Under the pieces are notes generated by a model. The model searched no databases, was not told where the DNA came from, and saw only the letters and a list, made by a program, of their open reading frames with translations. Positions 6,450 to 16,260 of a stretch of 16,260 bases of DNA are shown piece by piece. The stretch lies in the UHGV virus genome UHGV-0143875; one strand, 5' to 3'. Position numbers and translations under genes: made by a program. This stretch comes from a virus. Each line of letters opens with the position of its first letter. Positions within the stretch are counted from its first letter, which is position 1.

Positions 6450-7804
<1,355 letters not shown>

Positions 7805-8108: not shown

Positions 8109-8435
8109 ATGGATGCACAAACATGCCGCCGCGAACGTCGCGCAGAGAAACAGGCTCAATGGAAAACAGCAAACCCCCTGTTGGTTGGGGTAAGCGCAAA
8201 ACCAGTTAACCGCCCTATTCTCTCGCTGAATCGCAAACCGAAATCACGAGTAGAAAGCGCACTGAATCCGATAGACCTTACAGTGCTGGCTGAATACCAC
8301 GAACAGATTGAAAGCAACCTGCAGCGTATTGAGCGCAAGAATCAGCGCACATGGTACAGCAAGCCACGCAGTGAAATGGGTGTGACTTGTGTTGGTCGCC
8401 AGAAAATGAAATTAGGCAGCAAACCACTTATTTGA
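8109..8435 (+). CDS. N: Antitermination protein N
   Basis: From ATG at 8109: MDAQTCRRERRAEKQAQWKTANPLLVGVSAKPVNRPILSLNRKPKSRVESALNPIDLTVLAEYHEQIESNLQRIERKNQRTWYSKP...; arginine-rich motif at the N-terminus; lambda N by recall. The ORF-track upstream extension (8019-8108) is leader. Confidence 0.9.
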   Translation: MDAQTCRRERRAEKQAQWKTANPLLVGVSAKPVNRPILSLNRKPKSRVESALNPIDLTVLAEYHEQIESNLQRIERKNQRTWYSKPRSEMGVTCVGRQKMKLGSKPLI

Positions 8436-8446
8436 GAGGAATTAAT

Positions 8447-8983
8447 ATGTCATCAATCCGCTTAACTACGAGAATGAAAGAGAAAATCGCTCGTAACGCT
8501 TTAATTAAATCTGGGGTTTTCACTGAGCTTGAAGAAGTAACAAAGTTAAAGAACAAGCTTGCACTTGACGCCAGAGTTGTTGCGTTTGGCGGTAAAAAGA
8601 AAACTGAGGAAGTGGATCAGTTATCATCCAAGTTAATGGCTATAAGCGAAGAACTTGAAAAGCTGGGATGTTCATTTTACTCATGCGATGCCCGTTCAAC
8701 TTCAATTTATCTGACTGTATCTGGCAGAAGGGTTGGCTGGTATTCATATGGGAAAGACGGCAACGGCGAAGATATATTGCTCCCTACTCCGACCAAAGAT
8801 AAATGCATGTTTAGCGCAGAACACGAAATAACAAAAAGGTTTGATGAAATCTGCGCATTGCAACAAAAACTTGAAGCCAAGAAAAAGGATATCGAATCAA
8901 ATGTATGGGCTGCTTTGAACTCAGTCACAACAGTTAAGCGACTTATTGAAGTTTGGCCTGAAAGCAAAGAGTTGCTACCATAA
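8447..8983 (+). CDS. Hypothetical protein, 178 aa, in the N-proximal accessory slot (lambda ral/sieB position)
   Basis: ATG at 8447 preceded by GAGAGGA RBS; MSSIRLTTRMKEKIARNALIKSGVFTELEEVTKLKNKLALDARVVAFGGKKKTEEVDQ...; charged, Lys-rich, no obvious transmembrane segment; lower GC than flanks by eye; no resemblance to Ral or SieB as recalled. Confidence 0.6.
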   Translation: MSSIRLTTRMKEKIARNALIKSGVFTELEEVTKLKNKLALDARVVAFGGKKKTEEVDQLSSKLMAISEELEKLGCSFYSCDARSTSIYLTVSGRRVGWYSYGKDGNGEDILLPTPTKDKCMFSAEHEITKRFDEICALQQKLEAKKKDIESNVWAALNSVTTVKRLIEVWPESKELLP

Positions 8984-9294: not shown

Positions 9295-9465
9295 ATGCAA
9301 CAGTTCGCTATTGCAGGGGCGGCATCGGTTCGCCCTTTCAACCCGATTTTATCGGTACAGCATTCACGAAAAAATATTTTAACCGGAGCAGACTTTAAAC
9401 AACCAAGAATGAAAAGCTTGCTCGAAAAGCTTTGGGATATTTTGAAACAACAAGGCCGCCCATGA
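9295..9465 (+). CDS. cIII: cIII-like protein (inhibitor of FtsH-mediated cII degradation)
   Basis: 56 aa MQQFAIAGAASVRPFNPILSVQHSRKNILTGADFKQPRMKSLLEKLWDILKQQGRP after RBS AAGGAG; same size, position and N-terminal MQ-x-AIAG motif as lambda cIII, otherwise diverged. Confidence 0.65.
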   Translation: MQQFAIAGAASVRPFNPILSVQHSRKNILTGADFKQPRMKSLLEKLWDILKQQGRP

Positions 9466-9569
9466 GTTTTACAGATAACTGGTCAGACGAAGAATTCATT
9501 CGTCAGATAAACAAAATGCTCAATCAGCACAAAGAACAGGAGAAAGATGATGATTCTGACTCTGAATGA
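9462..9569 (+). CDS. Possible small acidic protein (35 aa), ATGA-coupled to cIII
   Basis: MSFTDNWSDEEFIRQINKMLNQHKEQEKDDDSDSE; start overlaps the cIII stop; too short for the ORF track; coding status uncertain. Confidence 0.3.
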   Translation: MSFTDNWSDEEFIRQINKMLNQHKEQEKDDDSDSE

Positions 9570-9858
9570 TAAGCGTGAAATATCGCAAATTATCGCAACT
9601 TTTACTGATGAAGATTACGAACGAATCAACAGTGAAGTTGATCGCCTCTGCAAACGTTGCGACCCAATAAGCGAAATGCTTCGCTCATATAAACCAGATG
9701 AACACACTAAAGATGCTATCGACTGGCTGGAAGATGATGACTGTGACTATCAGGAAAAAGCCGCTGAATGGTTCTGGGATGCAATAACAGAAAGAGTTAA
9801 GGCTGAATATGCCTTCGCAATATTCAAACGCAGACAAATTTATGGAGAAGCAGCATGA
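9547..9858 (+). CDS. Hypothetical acidic protein, 103 aa, immediately upstream of and coupled to the RecT gene
   Basis: RBS AGGAG 5 nt before ATG; MMILTLNDKREISQIIATFTDEDYERINSEVDRLCKRCDPISEMLRSYKPDEH...; Asp/Glu-rich; stop overlaps the RecT start (ATGA). In the position lambda uses for kil/gam. Confidence 0.6.
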   Translation: MMILTLNDKREISQIIATFTDEDYERINSEVDRLCKRCDPISEMLRSYKPDEHTKDAIDWLEDDDCDYQEKAAEWFWDAITERVKAEYAFAIFKRRQIYGEAA

Positions 9859-10757
9859 GCAATATCGTTGAATTCGTTAAACATCAGGAGCAGTTATTCT
9901 GCGGGGCATTGACTGAACAGACGGTGACATGGGCTAAGGAAAGCCAGTTTGCAATTCAGTATTTCCAGAAAAATGATTACCTGGCTAAAACGGCACTGGC
10001 AAATCCAACCAGCGCACAGAACGCCATCATCAATGTTGCGGCGATCGGCATCACCTTAAACCCGGCTAGCAAACTGGCTTATCTAGTTCCGCGCGACGGC
10101 ATGGTTTGCCTTGATATAAGTTACATGGGATTACTTCACCTTGCACAGTCGACAGGATCAATTAAGTGGGGACAATGCAAACTGGTGTACTCAAACGACA
10201 CCTATGAATCGAATGGCCTTGATTCAGCACCCACTCACAAATACAACGCATTTGGTGAGCGAGGCTCTATTGTTGGTGGTTATTGCACGGTTAAAACAGC
10301 AGATGGTGACTACCTGACTGAAGAAATGAGTCTGACAGAAATTAAAGCCGTGGAAGCAACGAGCAAGGCAAAGAATGGACCGTGGATGACATTCTGGGAA
10401 GAGATGGCGCGTAAAACCATAGTTAAACGCGCCAGCAAATACTGGCCTAAAGCCCAGCGACTGGATAATGCCATTCACCTGCTTAACGAAGATGAAAGTA
10501 TGCATCAGGAACCAGTTATGCCGCATAAATCAGAGGAAGATATCCGCGAAGATGAACGGAAACGCCAGCAGGAAATAACGGATAAAGCACAACTTCTTTG
10601 TGATGAAATGGCTCAGGCTGAAAACATGGATGATTTGAAGAGATATTTTGCAGAAGCATATCGCCTGACATCTGGAATGAAATTGCAGCAGAACGTACAA
10701 GCCATTTACATAGAATGCAAAGCGAAACTGGAGGTTGCCAGTGAGCAAACTGTATGA
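9855..10757 (+). CDS. recT: RecT-family single-strand annealing recombinase
   Basis: 300 aa; contains the ...NGPWMTFWEEMARKTIVKRASKYWP... block characteristic of the RecT family (compare Rac RecT GPWVTHWEEMAKKT by recall); occupies the lambda bet position. Confidence 0.8.
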   Translation: MSNIVEFVKHQEQLFCGALTEQTVTWAKESQFAIQYFQKNDYLAKTALANPTSAQNAIINVAAIGITLNPASKLAYLVPRDGMVCLDISYMGLLHLAQSTGSIKWGQCKLVYSNDTYESNGLDSAPTHKYNAFGERGSIVGGYCTVKTADGDYLTEEMSLTEIKAVEATSKAKNGPWMTFWEEMARKTIVKRASKYWPKAQRLDNAIHLLNEDESMHQEPVMPHKSEEDIREDERKRQQEITDKAQLLCDEMAQAENMDDLKRYFAEAYRLTSGMKLQQNVQAIYIECKAKLEVASEQTV

Positions 10758-11223
10758 AATAGCCAATGAATACGCAAAGTTGATGGATTCGGATTTAGAG
10801 CCAGAGATGATTGCTGACACAATAGAAGGCATGGAAGGAGAATTTACCGATAAAATAGAGCAACTTCTTGCCATTATTAAAAATGAATCTGGTTATGCTG
10901 AACGCCTCAAGGACGAGGCAAAGTCACTGAATGAACGAGCAGCAGTAATTCAAAATAAGATTGATAGCATTATGGCATATATAGCGTCATCGCTTGAAAT
11001 GGTTGGCAAGAAAAAGATTCGAGCAGGTATTCACCAGGTAACAATCCGCAAACCGTCAGAAACTGTAGAAATCATCGACTCAAGCGCCCTTCCTCAAGAA
11101 TACGTTGAGTTTGAAACGACAATTAAAGCCGACAAGTTGGCAATAAAACACCAACTAAAAGCAGGAATAAATATCCCCGGCGCTCAACTCAAAGTTGGGA
11201 AACCTTCACTTCTTATCAAATAA
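10741..11223 (+). CDS. Hypothetical protein (~160 aa) downstream partner of RecT, probable GTG start
   Basis: GGAGG RBS 7 nt upstream of GTG at 10741; overlaps the RecT 3' end; predicted helical and charged: SKLYEIANEYAKLMDSDLEPEMIADTIEGMEGEFTDKIEQLLAIIKNESGYAERLKDEAKSLNERAAV.... Function unknown. Confidence 0.55.
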   Translation: MSKLYEIANEYAKLMDSDLEPEMIADTIEGMEGEFTDKIEQLLAIIKNESGYAERLKDEAKSLNERAAVIQNKIDSIMAYIASSLEMVGKKKIRAGIHQVTIRKPSETVEIIDSSALPQEYVEFETTIKADKLAIKHQLKAGINIPGAQLKVGKPSLLIK

Positions 11224-11234
11224 CGGTATCGCCT

Positions 11235-11549
11235 ATGAAAAAGACTCCATGGGAGAAATGGGAAGTCAATTTCTTGCGCGAAGTAGTGGCGACAATGCCA
11301 GTTGAAGTTATCGCTGAAAAACTGGAAAGGACTGAAAAAGCAGTAATGGCGAAAGCAACAAGGATTGGCGCTGACATTGTTAGCCGACTTCGTGGAAGAC
11401 GATGGACAAGAGCCGAAGTATCACTTTTCGGTAAGTTCTCCGCAGAAGAAATAGCAATTGCAACCTGCCGCTTAATTTATTCGGTAAGAGCTATGCGATA
11501 CAAGCTAAAAAAACTCGATGAAAAAAGAGCAGGCATACAAATAAATTAA
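11235..11549 (+). CDS. Hypothetical small basic protein, 104 aa, with two W/E/F-containing repeats (possible DNA-binding)
   Basis: MKKTPWEKWEVNFLREVVATMPVEVIAEKLERTEKAV...RRWTRAEVSLFGKFSAEEIAIATCR...; internal repeat noted by eye; fold unverified. Confidence 0.5.
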   Translation: MKKTPWEKWEVNFLREVVATMPVEVIAEKLERTEKAVMAKATRIGADIVSRLRGRRWTRAEVSLFGKFSAEEIAIATCRLIYSVRAMRYKLKKLDEKRAGIQIN

Positions 11550-11565
11550 CATGGAGTAATTAACA

Positions 11566-11847
11566 ATGAAGCTAAACATCGACCTCGGTAAATACGTTAT
11601 TACTGGAACAAAACACGACCTGATTCTTAATGAAAGAGGAATTATCAAAGAAGGTGAGAATGCAGGGAAAGAAACACTAAGCCGTATCGGTTATTACAGC
11701 AAGTTTGAGCATCTGGTCAAAGAGTTATGCAACCGTGAAATCCTGTTATCTCAGGCGCAGACGCTACAGGATATTCAGCAGCATATCGAAACTTTAGGTA
11801 TGTCACTTAGCATGGCTATTGACCAGTTCGTGGAGAGTAAATCATGA
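11566..11847 (+). CDS. Hypothetical protein, 93 aa
   Basis: ORF track; same strand, AT-rich, tightly spaced after the previous gene. Confidence 0.5.
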
Positions 11848-11978
11848 GAGGACTTGCATACAATCCCGGCATTCTTCCAGCAGAAATGATTATTCGCCAA
11901 CGCGTAAAGCCAATGCCATCGAGAGAGGAATTGCTTAAGAGAAATTCTTTTCCATCAGTGAATCAAACAAATATCTGA
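11844..11978 (+). CDS. Possible small protein (44 aa), ATGA-coupled to the preceding gene
   Basis: [44 protein letters not shown]; start overlaps the upstream stop; below the ORF-track size cutoff. Confidence 0.3.
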
Positions 11979-12006: not shown

Positions 12007-12567
12007 GTGAGTGTAACGGTTGAAAAGATTGATGTGTTGTCATTCGTTATAACCGGTGCAGAGAGACTAGATCCGGTTCGAGTGATGATTGAAAACTACG
12101 AACCTGGAAAGGGAAGAATCACCATCACCTGCTACGGAAAAGCGTGGACTGCGGCTTGGTTTGCTATGGGCGGTGATGATGTGCAGACGTTCATTAAGCG
12201 AGTCAGCAACGATTATCTAATCGACAATTTCGACCCTCAACTGCTAAGCACGGTCGACGATGACAACGATGCAAATCTGCTTTTCGTGAAGTCAGAAATC
12301 ATAAAGTTACGAAGAGAGAGAGAAATAGACGTCGTACTGGCTCGCGAAATGTGGGACGAGGCGGAAAACGCCGATGACGTAAAAGAAAGCTGCTGCTGTT
12401 TCGGCGTCGGTAACAAACTACTGAATCTCTTTGGTGATGATCCGTGGTATGCCAACTGGCCAACGATACCAAACCCGAAATACCAGTATCTGGAACGCGT
12501 ACTTAATGCAGTGAGAGACGGTCTTAAGCAAATAGATGCAGGAGAGCAAAGCGATGAAAAACCGTAA
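12007..12567 (+). CDS. Hypothetical protein (~186 aa), probable GTG start
   Basis: AAGGAGG RBS at 11994-12000, GTG at 12007; ...VTVEKIDVLSFVITGAERLDPVRVMIENYEPGKGRITITCYGKAWTAAWFAMGGDD...; acidic central region; first gene of a tightly coupled five-gene block. Confidence 0.55.
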   Translation: MSVTVEKIDVLSFVITGAERLDPVRVMIENYEPGKGRITITCYGKAWTAAWFAMGGDDVQTFIKRVSNDYLIDNFDPQLLSTVDDDNDANLLFVKSEIIKLRREREIDVVLAREMWDEAENADDVKESCCCFGVGNKLLNLFGDDPWYANWPTIPNPKYQYLERVLNAVRDGLKQIDAGEQSDEKP

Positions 12568-12730
12568 GGCAAAACGACTTTTTTTACAGCGACCTGTGCG
12601 TGTGGTGGAGCTGGTTATTAGCAACCATAAGATAGCGGTACTCCATCCATTTGGTCAGGTGGCTTTTGCCGCAAAGCGTAAGCCTACTGCGTCACAGAAC
12701 AGGCGGAAGAAAGGGTACGCTGTAAGATGA
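12554..12730 (+). CDS. Small basic protein (58 aa), paralog 1 of a tandem pair
   Basis: ATG at 12554 (internal Met of ORF 12536..12730): MKNRKAKRLFLQRPVRVVELVISNHKIAVLHPFGQVAFAAKRKPTASQNRRKKGYAVR; Lys/Arg-rich. Confidence 0.5.
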   Translation: MKNRKAKRLFLQRPVRVVELVISNHKIAVLHPFGQVAFAAKRKPTASQNRRKKGYAVR

Positions 12731-12918
12731 AAAACCGTAAAGCAAAGATGCTTATTTCCCGTGTATACAGACGTTGCTATCCCAGCCAATGGTTGAGGGT
12801 TAGCAATCGCCGTGTGGTGTTGTTTTCATTTTCTGGAATTGCCAGAGAGGGAGTCAAAGATAAGCGTAGCGCGGCGCAAAACCGCTGGAAAAACCACTTG
12901 TGCACTAAAGGAGCGTGA
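12727..12918 (+). CDS. Small basic protein (63 aa), paralog 2 of a tandem pair
   Basis: MKNRKAKMLISRVYRRCYPSQWLRVSNRRVVLFSFSGIAREGVKDKRSAAQNRWKNHLCTKGA; ATGA-coupled to paralog 1; shares the MKNRKAK N-terminus and an S/A-QNR-R/W-K C-terminal block. Confidence 0.5.
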   Translation: MKNRKAKMLISRVYRRCYPSQWLRVSNRRVVLFSFSGIAREGVKDKRSAAQNRWKNHLCTKGA

Positions 12919-12919
12919 T

Positions 12920-13435
12920 ATGGCGTTAACACACCGCGAACTCTGTCAGATTGCGTACAAGTTCCTTAAGCGCAACGGGTTCAAGGTTTGTTTTCATGAC
13001 CGCTTTATAGCTGTAACCAGTACCGGAGAACAGCCAGATGCTATGGGATTCAGAAATTCAGCATCATGCCTGATAGAGGCGAAGTGTTCTCGTGCTGACT
13101 TGTTGGCAGATAGAAAAAAGCGTTTCCGTAAAAATCCGTCTCTTGGAATGGGCGACTGGCGATTCTTTATTAGTGAGCCGGGAATTATTTCAATTGAGGA
13201 TTTACCTCCCGGCTGGGGATTACTTCACGTTGTTAACGGAAGAGTACGGAAAGTACATGGATGGCCCAAGGGGAATTGCTGTTGGGGTAACCCTGAAGAT
13301 AAACCTTTTATTGGGAATAAGCAGGTTGAATGCGATTACATGTTATCTGCATTAAGGCGCATGGAGTTGAGAGGGCACCTTAATGAAATATATGACGGTG
13401 TAATTGTTAATAAGAAAGAAGGAAACGCGGCATGA
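12920..13435 (+). CDS. Hypothetical protein, 171 aa, with a PD-(D/E)xK-like motif (possible nuclease fold)
   Basis: ATG at 12920 after AAGGAG RBS: MALTHRELCQIAYKFLKRNGFKVCFHDRFIAVTSTGEQPDAMGFRNSASCLIEAKCSRADLL...; the D-x(n)-E-A-K arrangement resembles restriction-endonuclease-fold catalytic motifs. Inference only. Confidence 0.5.
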   Translation: MALTHRELCQIAYKFLKRNGFKVCFHDRFIAVTSTGEQPDAMGFRNSASCLIEAKCSRADLLADRKKRFRKNPSLGMGDWRFFISEPGIISIEDLPPGWGLLHVVNGRVRKVHGWPKGNCCWGNPEDKPFIGNKQVECDYMLSALRRMELRGHLNEIYDGVIVNKKEGNAA

Positions 13436-14364
13436 TCACTATTACCAAAGAGTTCACCAAAGAGCAGTTGATTGAGCAGGCTAAGAAGAATATTGAGGTT
13501 CTTCGCGTTGCGGTGGAAAGAGTCCCAGGCGCTTATGATGCGGCGGTTATTCATCTCAAGCTGGCTGAAATTACGCTGGCATCGCTGGAAGCAGAGCCTG
13601 TTCTGTATCAGTCCTGCACACGCCCCACCTGGAATAGCGGAGTTCCGTGGACGGAATGGAAAGAACGTAGTCGTGAGGGCTACGAAGACGATTTGCGCTT
13701 TACAGACACGCCTGACCATGCCGGTTGGATAAACAAATGTCGAAAACTATATACCACTCCGCCAGCACCGATAGCGTTAGAGGCCATTGAAAACGCAATT
13801 GAATATATCCGCAGTATCGCTTTTCACATCGATGAAGACGATTACCACGGCAAGCATATTGCGTATTTCATGCGACAAGCACTGGTCTGGCTGGAAGGGC
13901 ATTCATGCAGCAACGACAGACAGGGTAAAGCCGAGAATCAACCAGTACGCGGCAACCAGACTGCCGAATCCAATCGCGGTAATGAGTGGACCGGCAATCC
14001 TGATATTGATAACGCCATCATCATGCTCGATCGCATAGATACGCTGGAAAGTTGCGATGATGACCGTATTGAGGCGGTTAAGGCTGTTTTGCGTAGACTG
14101 GCTGGCAACTATCCGGTAACTCCGGATGGTTGGATAAGCTGTAGTGAGCGAATGCCAGAAATGGGAGAGCGACAATGCTATGTGTTAGCAGCTGACTTTA
14201 AAAACAACTACCCACCAAACATCCCCAACACTCAGGTCGGCGTATATGGCGACTGGTTTAATGATGGCAATCCCACTTGGGATGACGGTGATGGCGAAGA
14301 CCTGTATCTCAAAGAGGTAACCCACTGGATGCCGCTACCGGAACCGCCACAGGAGGTGAAATGA
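13432..14364 (+). CDS. Hypothetical phage protein, 310 aa, with a C-terminal region resembling the DUF551 prophage domain
   Basis: ATGA-coupled to the upstream gene; C-terminus ...QCYVLAADFKNNYPPNIPNTQVGVYGDWFNDGNPTWDDGDGEDLYLKEVTHWMPLPEPPQEVK resembles DUF551-type tails by recall; N-terminal two thirds unassigned. Confidence 0.55.
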   Translation: MITITKEFTKEQLIEQAKKNIEVLRVAVERVPGAYDAAVIHLKLAEITLASLEAEPVLYQSCTRPTWNSGVPWTEWKERSREGYEDDLRFTDTPDHAGWINKCRKLYTTPPAPIALEAIENAIEYIRSIAFHIDEDDYHGKHIAYFMRQALVWLEGHSCSNDRQGKAENQPVRGNQTAESNRGNEWTGNPDIDNAIIMLDRIDTLESCDDDRIEAVKAVLRRLAGNYPVTPDGWISCSERMPEMGERQCYVLAADFKNNYPPNIPNTQVGVYGDWFNDGNPTWDDGDGEDLYLKEVTHWMPLPEPPQEVK

Positions 14365-14993: not shown

Positions 14994-15212
14994 ATGTACT
15001 TGACACTTCAGGAGTGGAACGCACGCCAGCGACGCCCAAGAAGCCTTGAAACAGTTCGTCGATGGGTACGCGAGTGCAGGATATTCCCTCCTCCGGTTAA
15101 GGATGGAAGAGAGTATCTGTTCCACGAATCAGCGGTAAAGGTTGACTTAAATCGACCAGTAACAGGTAGCCTTTTGAAGAGGATCAGAAATGGGAAGAAG
15201 GCGAAGTCATGA
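14994..15212 (+). CDS. xis: Excisionase Xis
   Basis: 72 aa MYLTLQEWNARQRRPRSLETVRRWVRECRIFPPPVKDGREYLFHESAVKVDLNRPVTGSLLKRIRNGKKAKS; lambda Xis by recall; 3' end overlaps int. Confidence 0.95.
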   Translation: MYLTLQEWNARQRRPRSLETVRRWVRECRIFPPPVKDGREYLFHESAVKVDLNRPVTGSLLKRIRNGKKAKS

Positions 15213-16260
15213 GCGCCGGGATTTACCCCCTAATCTTTATATAAGAAACAATGGATATTACTGCTACAGGGACCCAAGGACGGGTAAAGAGTTTGGATTA
15301 GGCCGAGACAGGAGGATAGCAATCACTGAAGCTATACAGGCCAACATTGAGTTATTTTCAGGACACAAACACAAGCCTCTGACAGCGAGAATCAACAGTG
15401 ATAATTCTGTTACGTTACATTCATGGCTTGATCGCTACGAAAAAATCCTCGCCAACAGAGGAATCAAGCAGAAGACACTCATAAATTACATGAGCAAAAT
15501 TAAAGCAATAAGGAGGAGTCTGCCTGATGCTCCACTTGAAGACATCACCACAAAAGAAATTGCAGCAATGCTCAATGGATACATAGACGAGGGCAAGGCG
15601 GCGTCAGCCAAGTTAATCAGATCAACACTGAGCGATGCATTCCGAGAGGCAATAGCTGAAGGCCATATAACAACAAACCCGGTCGCTGCCACTCGCGCAG
15701 CAAAATCAGAGGTAAGGAGATCAAGACTTACGGCTGACGAATACCTGAAAATTTATCAAGCAGCAGAATCATCACCATGTTGGCTCAGACTTGCAATGGA
15801 ACTGGCTGTTGTTACCGGGCAGCGAGTTGGTGATTTATGCGAAATGAAGTGGTCTGATATCGTAGATGGATATCTTTATGTCGAGCAAAGCAAAACAGGC
15901 GTAAAAATTGCCATCCCTACAACATTGCATGTTGATGCTCTCGGGATATCAATGAAGGAAACACTTGGTAAATGCAAAGAGATTCTTGGCGGAGAAACCA
16001 TAATTGCATCTACTCGTCGTGAACCGCTTTCATCCGGCACAGTATCAAGGTATTTTATGCGCGCACGAAAAGCATCAGGTCTTTCCTTCGAAGGGGATCC
16101 GCCTACCTTTCACGAGTTGCGCAGTTTGTCTGCAAGACTCTATGAGAAGCAGATAAGCGATAAGTTTGCTCAACATCTTCTCGGGCATAAGTCGGACACC
16201 ATGGCATCACAATATCGTGATGACAGAGGCAGGGAGTGGGACAAAATTGAAATCAAATAA
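15190..16260 (+). CDS. int: Tyrosine integrase Int (lambda type); stop codon is the last triplet of the window
   Basis: 356 aa MGRRRSHERRDLPPNLYIRNNGYYCYRDPRTGKEFGLGRDRRIAITEAIQANIELFSGHKHKPLTARINSDNSVTLHSWLDRYEK...HELRSLSARLYEKQISDKFAQHLLGHKSDTMASQYRDDRGREWDKIEIK; C-terminal R...H-x-x-R...Y catalytic signature; lambda Int by recall. Confidence 0.95.
   Translation: MGRRRSHERRDLPPNLYIRNNGYYCYRDPRTGKEFGLGRDRRIAITEAIQANIELFSGHKHKPLTARINSDNSVTLHSWLDRYEKILANRGIKQKTLINYMSKIKAIRRSLPDAPLEDITTKEIAAMLNGYIDEGKAASAKLIRSTLSDAFREAIAEGHITTNPVAATRAAKSEVRRSRLTADEYLKIYQAAESSPCWLRLAMELAVVTGQRVGDLCEMKWSDIVDGYLYVEQSKTGVKIAIPTTLHVDALGISMKETLGKCKEILGGETIIASTRREPLSSGTVSRYFMRARKASGLSFEGDPPTFHELRSLSARLYEKQISDKFAQHLLGHKSDTMASQYRDDRGREWDKIEIK

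Follow-up and report, generated by a model that had tools for sequence, protein, structure and literature searches.

A survey of 325 lambdoid phages, published in Genome Research in 2025, recorded no nuclease in 84 of 246 Rec modules and assigned 46 phages to a P22 functional type, which consists of an anti-RecBCD protein and an annealase only (PMC12315714). Phage HK140 is listed there with an annealase of type 4 (SAP-4) and a MuGam-type anti-RecBCD protein, with 'no phage-encoded nuclease' and without a single-stranded DNA-binding protein (SSB) (PMC12315714). Here we compare with these systems a gene pair from the early-left block on the + strand of virus genome UHGV-0143875 (16,260 nt; this whole stretch is called the window below), in which the gene for a predicted annealase is followed by that for a member of the Sipho_Gp157 family:

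9855-10757, + strand (ATG to TGA): predicted RecT-family single-strand annealing protein, 300 aa, intact
10741-11223, + strand: Sipho_Gp157-family protein, 160 aa (Pfam PF05565, PHROG 253)

With a probability of roughly 0.6, both genes would belong to a module of the P22 functional type, in which the RecT annealase is combined with a Mu Gam-like anti-RecBCD protein, nuclease and SSB are lacking, and the whole is inherited as one block.

The module of HK140 (gp42-gp41-gp40-gp39) has the same gene order as the window, namely orf103 (named here for its 103-aa product), RecT, Gp157, orf104 (104 aa), DUF5405 and DUF2737. The two differ in their flanks only, which here comprise lambda-type N, Xis, Int, cII, O and P and another ea-region with an Nmad5 gene, whereas in HK140 the immunity region is HK620/P22-like and the integrase is another one. 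P22 itself (arf-erf-abc1-abc2) would share the functional type, has the same early-left position and likewise has neither a phage exonuclease nor an SSB, but its annealase is Erf and RecBCD is handled by Abc2 binding to RecC (PMC12315714), and neither of these genes is present here. The gam-bet-exo genes of lambda occupy the same slot between cIII and xis and combine an annealase with a defence against RecBCD, as is presumed for the window. Lambda Red differs by its Exo and Bet, in place of which the window has RecT and no Exo, with no similarity in any frame; moreover, the presumed RecBCD antagonist of the window would act on DNA ends, whereas lambda Gam mimics DNA inside RecBCD. A first reading of the window from its letters alone (the sequence-only reading) had proposed that this slot holds a cassette other than gam-bet-exo, and the RecT-Gp157 block was indeed located between cIII and xis. 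A fourth system, the RecET-like GamL-RecT-YqaJ-SSB module of phage TL-2011c, shares the RecT core (72.6% identity over 215 residues) and differs in the C-terminal ~100 residues of RecT, in the presence of YqaJ, SSB and a lambda-Gam-like gene and in the lack of Gp157.

The assignment of the 300-aa protein is based on matches to Pfam RecT (PF03837, 1.3e-32, 113.5 bits with a cutoff of 24, profile positions 5-187 of 198), to PHROG 148 (3.7e-90) and to TIGR00616 (74.9 bits, cutoff 52.65), and on an alignment to the solved Listeria RecT (PDB 7ub2, 3.9e-4). The equivalog model for RecT of the Rac prophage (NF007351) was not reached (90.3 bits vs a cutoff of 296), and by these profile matches the protein is a member of the RecT family and not the Rac RecT equivalog. 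Its start codon is preceded by GGAG 7 nt upstream and overlaps the stop of the upstream 103-aa open reading frame (ORF) as ATGA. Both the RecT-type protein proposed by the sequence-only reading and its position were thus recovered, and a truncation, which would have spoken against that reading, was not observed, as the ORF is of full length and the Pfam domain is covered. The protein is a domain mosaic, with a core close to that of TL-2011c RecT and, within its C-terminal part (residues 215-300, 10497-10754), ~55 last residues that resemble the C-terminus of Erf from Pantoea phage PdC23.

The mechanical ORF call for the partner gene begins at TTG 10735 (162 aa), a codon that sits within the GGAGG ribosome-binding site. 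A start at GTG 10741 has this GGAGG 7 nt upstream, gives the N-terminus MSKLYEIA as in homologues and agrees with the 483-nt gene called by PGAP in E. coli genomes, which makes it far more likely as the predicted start than TTG 10735; as the partner then begins at GTG 10741, its overlap with recT is 17 nt. The protein matches Pfam PF05565 (Sipho_Gp157) with 2.7e-36 and 125.5 bits (gathering score 28.6), with residues 5-162 of the 162-aa translation covering profile positions 1-162 of 162, and PHROG 253, 'Mu Gam-like end protection', with 8.6e-53. All of 144 diverse Gp157 representatives, which were drawn from a search of 1.8 billion proteins, also match PF05565. An AlphaFold2 model (pLDDT 78) predicts that residues 21-87 form one long helix and that the C-terminal half after it is rich in beta structure. 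The description as an overlapping helical protein of ~160 aa therefore stands with respect to overlap and length, while the model argues against an all-helical fold. Nor can the partner be called unknown any longer, since it is a full-length member of PF05565 and PHROG 253, is named in RefSeq, where the gene pair of E. coli is labelled 'RecT family recombinase | siphovirus Gp157 family protein', and is classed as MuGam-type for HK140 (PMC12315714); family searches gave no sign of an exonuclease or an SSB, the two other functions that had been considered for it.

Proteins of the GamMu type have been reported to bind DNA ends and to block the loading of RecBCD, Mu Gam has been described as a Ku homologue, and phages with end-binders of this type are reportedly targeted by Gabija (PMC12407980). 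A relationship of Gp157 to Mu Gam is suggested by several comparisons. A sub-threshold match to Phage_Mu_Gam (PF07352) with E 0.017 is colinear, aligning residues 39-159 of Gp157 with profile positions 29-147 of 149, and among the 144 representatives 18 match this profile at E <=0.01 (best 6.1e-7). A hidden Markov model (HMM) of the Gp157 family, built from 143 representatives and the protein of the window, scored Mu Gam proteins with 13-19 bits, again colinearly (HMM positions 57-158, Gam residues 52-160), while none of 4000 shuffled sequences reached 13.5 bits and reversed sequences gave at most 4.8 bits. Alignment of deep profiles of Gp157 and Mu Gam by hhalign led to an E-value of 4e-4; with shallow profiles the result was not significant. 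In addition, the gene neighbourhood is that of Mu, as orf104, a gp9 homologue, adjoins Gp157 and gp9 adjoins gam in Mu, and this evidence is independent of the sequence comparison. The counterparts of the Mu gp9-gam pair are hence adjacent in the window, with a firm orf104-gp9 match and a remote Gp157-Gam match; Mu differs in its reversed gene order (gp9 directly upstream of gam, Mu locus L006, 5482-6325) and in having no adjoining annealase. Four results weigh against a Gam-like partner: the 15.5 bits obtained by Gp157 with PF07352 stay below the gathering score of 28.3, the hhalign probability is just 34-35%, the solved Gam-like protein 2p2u scored 5.7 bits, which is at about the 99th percentile of shuffles, and a PDB profile search with Gp157 found no Gam and no Ku. 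As the evidence is mixed, we class the protein as Sipho_Gp157 and, with regard to Mu Gam, go no further than a probable distant relationship, judged from sequence comparison, gene neighbourhood and position. A literature search found no biochemical study of any Gp157-family protein or conserved accessory ORF, and a role of Gp157 in end binding and against RecBCD consequently rests on remote homology.

For the second part of the proposed functional type, the lack of a nuclease and an SSB, all six frames of the window were searched by tblastn with Exo, Bet and Gam of lambda, YqaJ, GamL and SSB of TL-2011c and Erf, Abc1 and Abc2 of P22, with no match. Pfam and PHROG scans of the ORFs of at least 45 aa in the early-left operon revealed no member of the YqaJ, RecE or DnaQ families, RecE being looked for by these scans alone. 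We also collected 80 contigs with a near-identical Gp157 from IMG/VR, 65 of which have enough flanking sequence for gene-content counts, and found lambda Exo, YqaJ, SSB, Abc2 and lambda Gam in 0/65, the range checked for exonucleases being 4 kb. The claim of the sequence-only reading that no recognisable 5'-3' exonuclease is encoded nearby is borne out by these searches. Its suspicion of a cryptic exonuclease in 11235-11978 is not, as this interval contains orf104, DUF5405 and DUF2737 only, without a match to a nuclease family. An exonuclease beside the annealase, the two-component arrangement of lambda Red and RecET, was accordingly not found, and the combination of the P22 functional type, an annealase present with nuclease and SSB absent, was (RecT; negative family scans). 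With P22 as the prototype and the share of nuclease-free Rec modules given above (PMC12315714), such a module is also not the oddity that it had been taken for.

The RecT and Gp157 genes are part of a larger conserved block, the other members of which are:

9462-9569, + strand: small ORF, 35 aa from an internal ATG (PHROG 17766, PHROG 2123)
9547-9858, + strand: orf103, acidic, 103 aa (PHROG 3486, unknown function, 5.5e-58)
11235-11549, + strand: orf104, 104 aa, two helix-turn-helix-like repeats (PHROG 323, 1.1e-19)
11566-11847, + strand: DUF5405 protein, 93 aa (Pfam DUF5405, 4.4e-6; PHROG 154, 2.8e-32)
11844-11978, + strand: DUF2737 protein, 44 aa, last gene of the block (Pfam DUF2737, 7.7e-25)

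The genes are tightly coupled by the ATGA overlap, the 17-nt overlap and gaps of 11-16 nt. The order small ORF-orf103-RecT-Gp157-orf104-DUF2737 was present in 64-65 of the 65 contigs (small ORF and orf103 in 64 each, orf104 and DUF2737 in 65 each), DUF5405 being variable (26/65), and median amino-acid identities over the 80 contigs were 95-99% for the block and 97% for RecT. HK140, mEpX1, Kapi1, Gally, vB_EcoP-683R2 and others, the first four of which are plaque-forming phages, have the cassette with ~92% nucleotide identity over 2.4 kb, and it occurs in 301/5426 complete E. coli genomes.

Regarding the accessory genes of this block, the gp9 relationship of orf104 is solid as far as sequence comparison goes, with a BLASTP E-value of 2e-5 against Mu gp9 and 26.3 bits for the family HMM (shuffle maximum 9.3). 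The label 'Anti-RecBCD protein 1, similar to P22 Abc1', which this protein carries in the GenBank entry of Gally, is at most a lead, as BLASTP against Abc1 gave no alignment and the family HMM scored Abc1 with 8.5 bits, inside the shuffle range; the sole link is PHROG 323, which is also matched by Mu gp9 (5.2e-29) and P22 Abc1 (1.3e-23). Because it is acidic and lies in the position of gam, orf103 was tested as an analogue of lambda Gam, but the sole match is an acidic stretch of 21 residues and the analogy is not credible. No Pfam or NCBIfam match was obtained for orf103. In an Izhakiella locus (L107), the ORF call joins it to RecT as one in-frame fusion. The small ORF, the first gene of the block, begins at TTG 9432 in the mechanical call (45 aa), and its matches to PHROG 17766 (5.2e-15) and PHROG 2123 ('recombinase', category 'other'; 1.8e-9) both begin at residue 11. 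Its similarity to P22 Arf spans 11 residues and the PHROGs differ, which is too little to call it Arf.

The neighbours of Gp157 outside this group were read from 80 species-representative genome loci, taking the nearest same-strand ORFs of at least 100 aa on each side. RecT lies upstream in 14/80, all of which belong to the enterobacterial clade with the closest relatives of this Gp157; downstream of Gp157, a Sak4-like AAA_24 ATPase was found in 26 loci and ERF and Sak in one each, and the loci with a downstream Sak4-like gene that were read individually belong to Clostridia and Dialister. A YqaJ-type exonuclease was a neighbour in none of the 80 loci. In Firmicutes phages, sipho_gp157, Mu gam-like, DUF2483 and DUF1351 genes have been reported to share a slot beside erf-ssb and sak4 (PMC8093625). 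Some loci deviate individually: Pseudenterobacter locus L103 (2774-3942) has transposase-like ORFs (Pfam rve) in the place of recT upstream of Gp157, and in Escherichia sp. ESNIH1 (L111, 2822-3885) a lambda-Gam-like gene is followed by a RecT with an apparently frameshifted C-terminus. Six loci from Proteus, Providencia and E. whittamii (L115-L118, L122, L172) offer another context and encode distant Gp157 homologues of 31-35% identity directly downstream of a protein of 655-737 aa without a Pfam match at E <=1e-5, and in four of them (L115, L117, L122, L172) an integrase-sized ORF follows 1-1.5 kb downstream of Gp157.

In the proposed P22-type module, PL would drive transcription of the block, which lies between cIII and the ea/xis/int region. 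Gp157 would dimerise via its long helix, as Mu Gam does, and the dimers would cap the ends of double-stranded DNA and keep RecBCD off linear phage DNA. RecT would anneal single-stranded DNA that is not made by the phage and may stem from the action of nucleases and helicases of the host or from replication-fork gaps. If its substrate is supplied by the host or the fork in this way, the missing exonuclease would therefore be a normal design feature and not a gap left by a hidden gene.

The inherited unit is the fixed block of six genes and not a pair of two. A more far-reaching proposal, which is unlikely on present evidence, is that the gp9-like orf104 acts as a general cofactor of Gam-like end-binders, so that together with RecT a self-contained, exonuclease-independent machine for end recombination would result.

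Rather improbable, in our opinion, is the idea that Gp157 is mainly a specific cofactor of RecT, for example by recruiting it to ends or loading it via the C-terminal tail of RecT, and not a general antagonist of RecBCD. The 17-nt overlap of both genes is in line with this, as are the last ~55 residues of RecT, which recur in the PdC23 Erf, whose gene also precedes a Gp157 gene. The RecT of TL-2011c also fits, since its similar core has a different C-terminus and its gene is followed by YqaJ and SSB rather than by Gp157. Furthermore, the gene upstream of Gp157 carries the tail in 16 enterobacterial loci, with an HNH-like ORF intervening in one. This co-occurrence is nevertheless explicable by inheritance as one block, and Gp157 also accompanies Sak4-type recombinases without the tail. 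A 2x2 comparison over 80 Erf loci led us to reject the tail as an exclusive docking domain for Gp157: a tail-like C-terminus without Gp157 was observed in 15 loci (weaker, 18-28 bits), Gp157 without the tail in 7 and both together in 0, and all five tail-only loci that were read have an SSB downstream. As this survey shows no exclusive co-variation, the tail is not a specific marker of partnership with Gp157.

That Gp157 is unrelated to recombination, being instead a replication-associated or 'phage resistance' protein, appears very unlikely. Such a function is implied by the Pfam family description and by database labels such as 'resistance protein', and the family was named for an ORF that Streptococcus thermophilus phages carry in their replication region (PMC8093625). 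Across phyla, however, Gp157 directly adjoins a recombinase (RecT, Erf, Sak or Sak4), which is also where genuine homologues of Mu Gam are located, and the remote similarity to Mu Gam is colinear. The original resistance phenotype has reportedly been attributed to a non-coding origin fragment and not to the Gp157 protein, which also counts against a resistance function.

A nuclease-fold gene that the sequence-only reading had overlooked lies further downstream:

12920-13435, + strand: PD-(D/E)xK-fold protein, 171 aa; its stop overlaps the start of the DUF551 gene at 13432-14364

The protein has a restriction-endonuclease-like fold with conserved acidic and lysine catalytic residues, and it might be a cryptic resection nuclease of RecT, to which we assign a very small chance. 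Just 4/65 contigs with the RecT-Gp157 block have the gene, and the early-left region of HK140, mEpX1, Kapi1 and Gally lacks it where aligned; in TL-2011c it is preceded, at a distance of 3.7 kb, by a complete GamL-RecT-YqaJ-SSB module, and it also occurs in Stx phages and P1. Its consistent coupling is to the DUF551 gene and not to recT: DUF551 follows directly here and in TL-2011c, and in EC.W1-9 the next gene is annotated as ea22. The closest structure is the uncharacterised 3dnx, followed by endonucleases and not by processive exonucleases of the lambda-Exo or RecE type. By its lack of linkage, this alternative is largely refuted.

Least probable of all is a decaying remnant with an inactive RecT, for which nothing specific speaks apart from decay in related loci (an insertion sequence replacing recT in L103, the frameshift in L111), while here all ORFs of the block are intact with good ribosome-binding sites, RecT covers its Pfam domain, and the block is highly conserved among the viral contigs and occurs in plaque-forming phages.

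The surroundings of the block confirm the lambda-like backbone described by the sequence-only reading. On the + strand, N, an Nmad5-domain ORF, cIII, tightly packed ORFs, xis and int form an early-left operon of lambda type, and on the other strand Pfam recognises CII, O, P, an S24-type repressor and Cro. The remaining features referred to in the text are:

7328-7804, + strand: ORF of up to 158 aa (PHROG 2651, unknown function)
8109-8435, + strand: N, 90% identical to lambda N
8447-8983, + strand: Nmad5-domain ORF ('nucleotide modification associated domain 5'; Pfam PF18757, 2.9e-58; PHROG 1965, unknown function)
9295-9465, + strand: cIII, recognised by PHROGs
12536-12730 and 12727-12918, + strand: two tandem paralogous small ORFs, 64 and 63 aa (both PHROG 1380)
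14994-15212, + strand: xis, 99% identical to lambda Xis
15190-16260, + strand: int, 98% identical to lambda Int

The Nmad5 ORF directly follows N and is rare among relatives of the RecT-Gp157 module (3/65 contigs). The ORF at 7328-7804, which lies downstream of the repressor gene where lambda has rexAB, encodes a hydrophobic signal-peptide-like stretch and may be a lysogenic-conversion or exclusion gene. The tandem 64- and 63-aa ORFs, just upstream of the PD-(D/E)xK gene, both carry MKNRKAK near the N-terminus. Complete E. coli genomes cover at most 63% of the 16-kb window at a single location, so that none reaches 80%; a mosaic that joins int, xis and N of lambda to the RecT-Gp157 cassette and this ea-region is thus absent as such from the complete E. 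coli genome collection. Chi sites are missing from both strands of the window, which is uninformative as ~0.5 sites would be expected by chance in 16 kb.

Taken together, the RecT-Gp157 feature is real, intact, ordinary and already catalogued, the module having been described with the ~92% identical one of HK140 in the survey (PMC12315714). As standard annotation pipelines already have names for both genes and the cassette is common, it has little weight as a discovery. Nevertheless, a compact cassette of RecT and Gp157 without an exonuclease could be tried for recombineering, and the locus is a reminder that many lambdoid phages depend on their host for resection.

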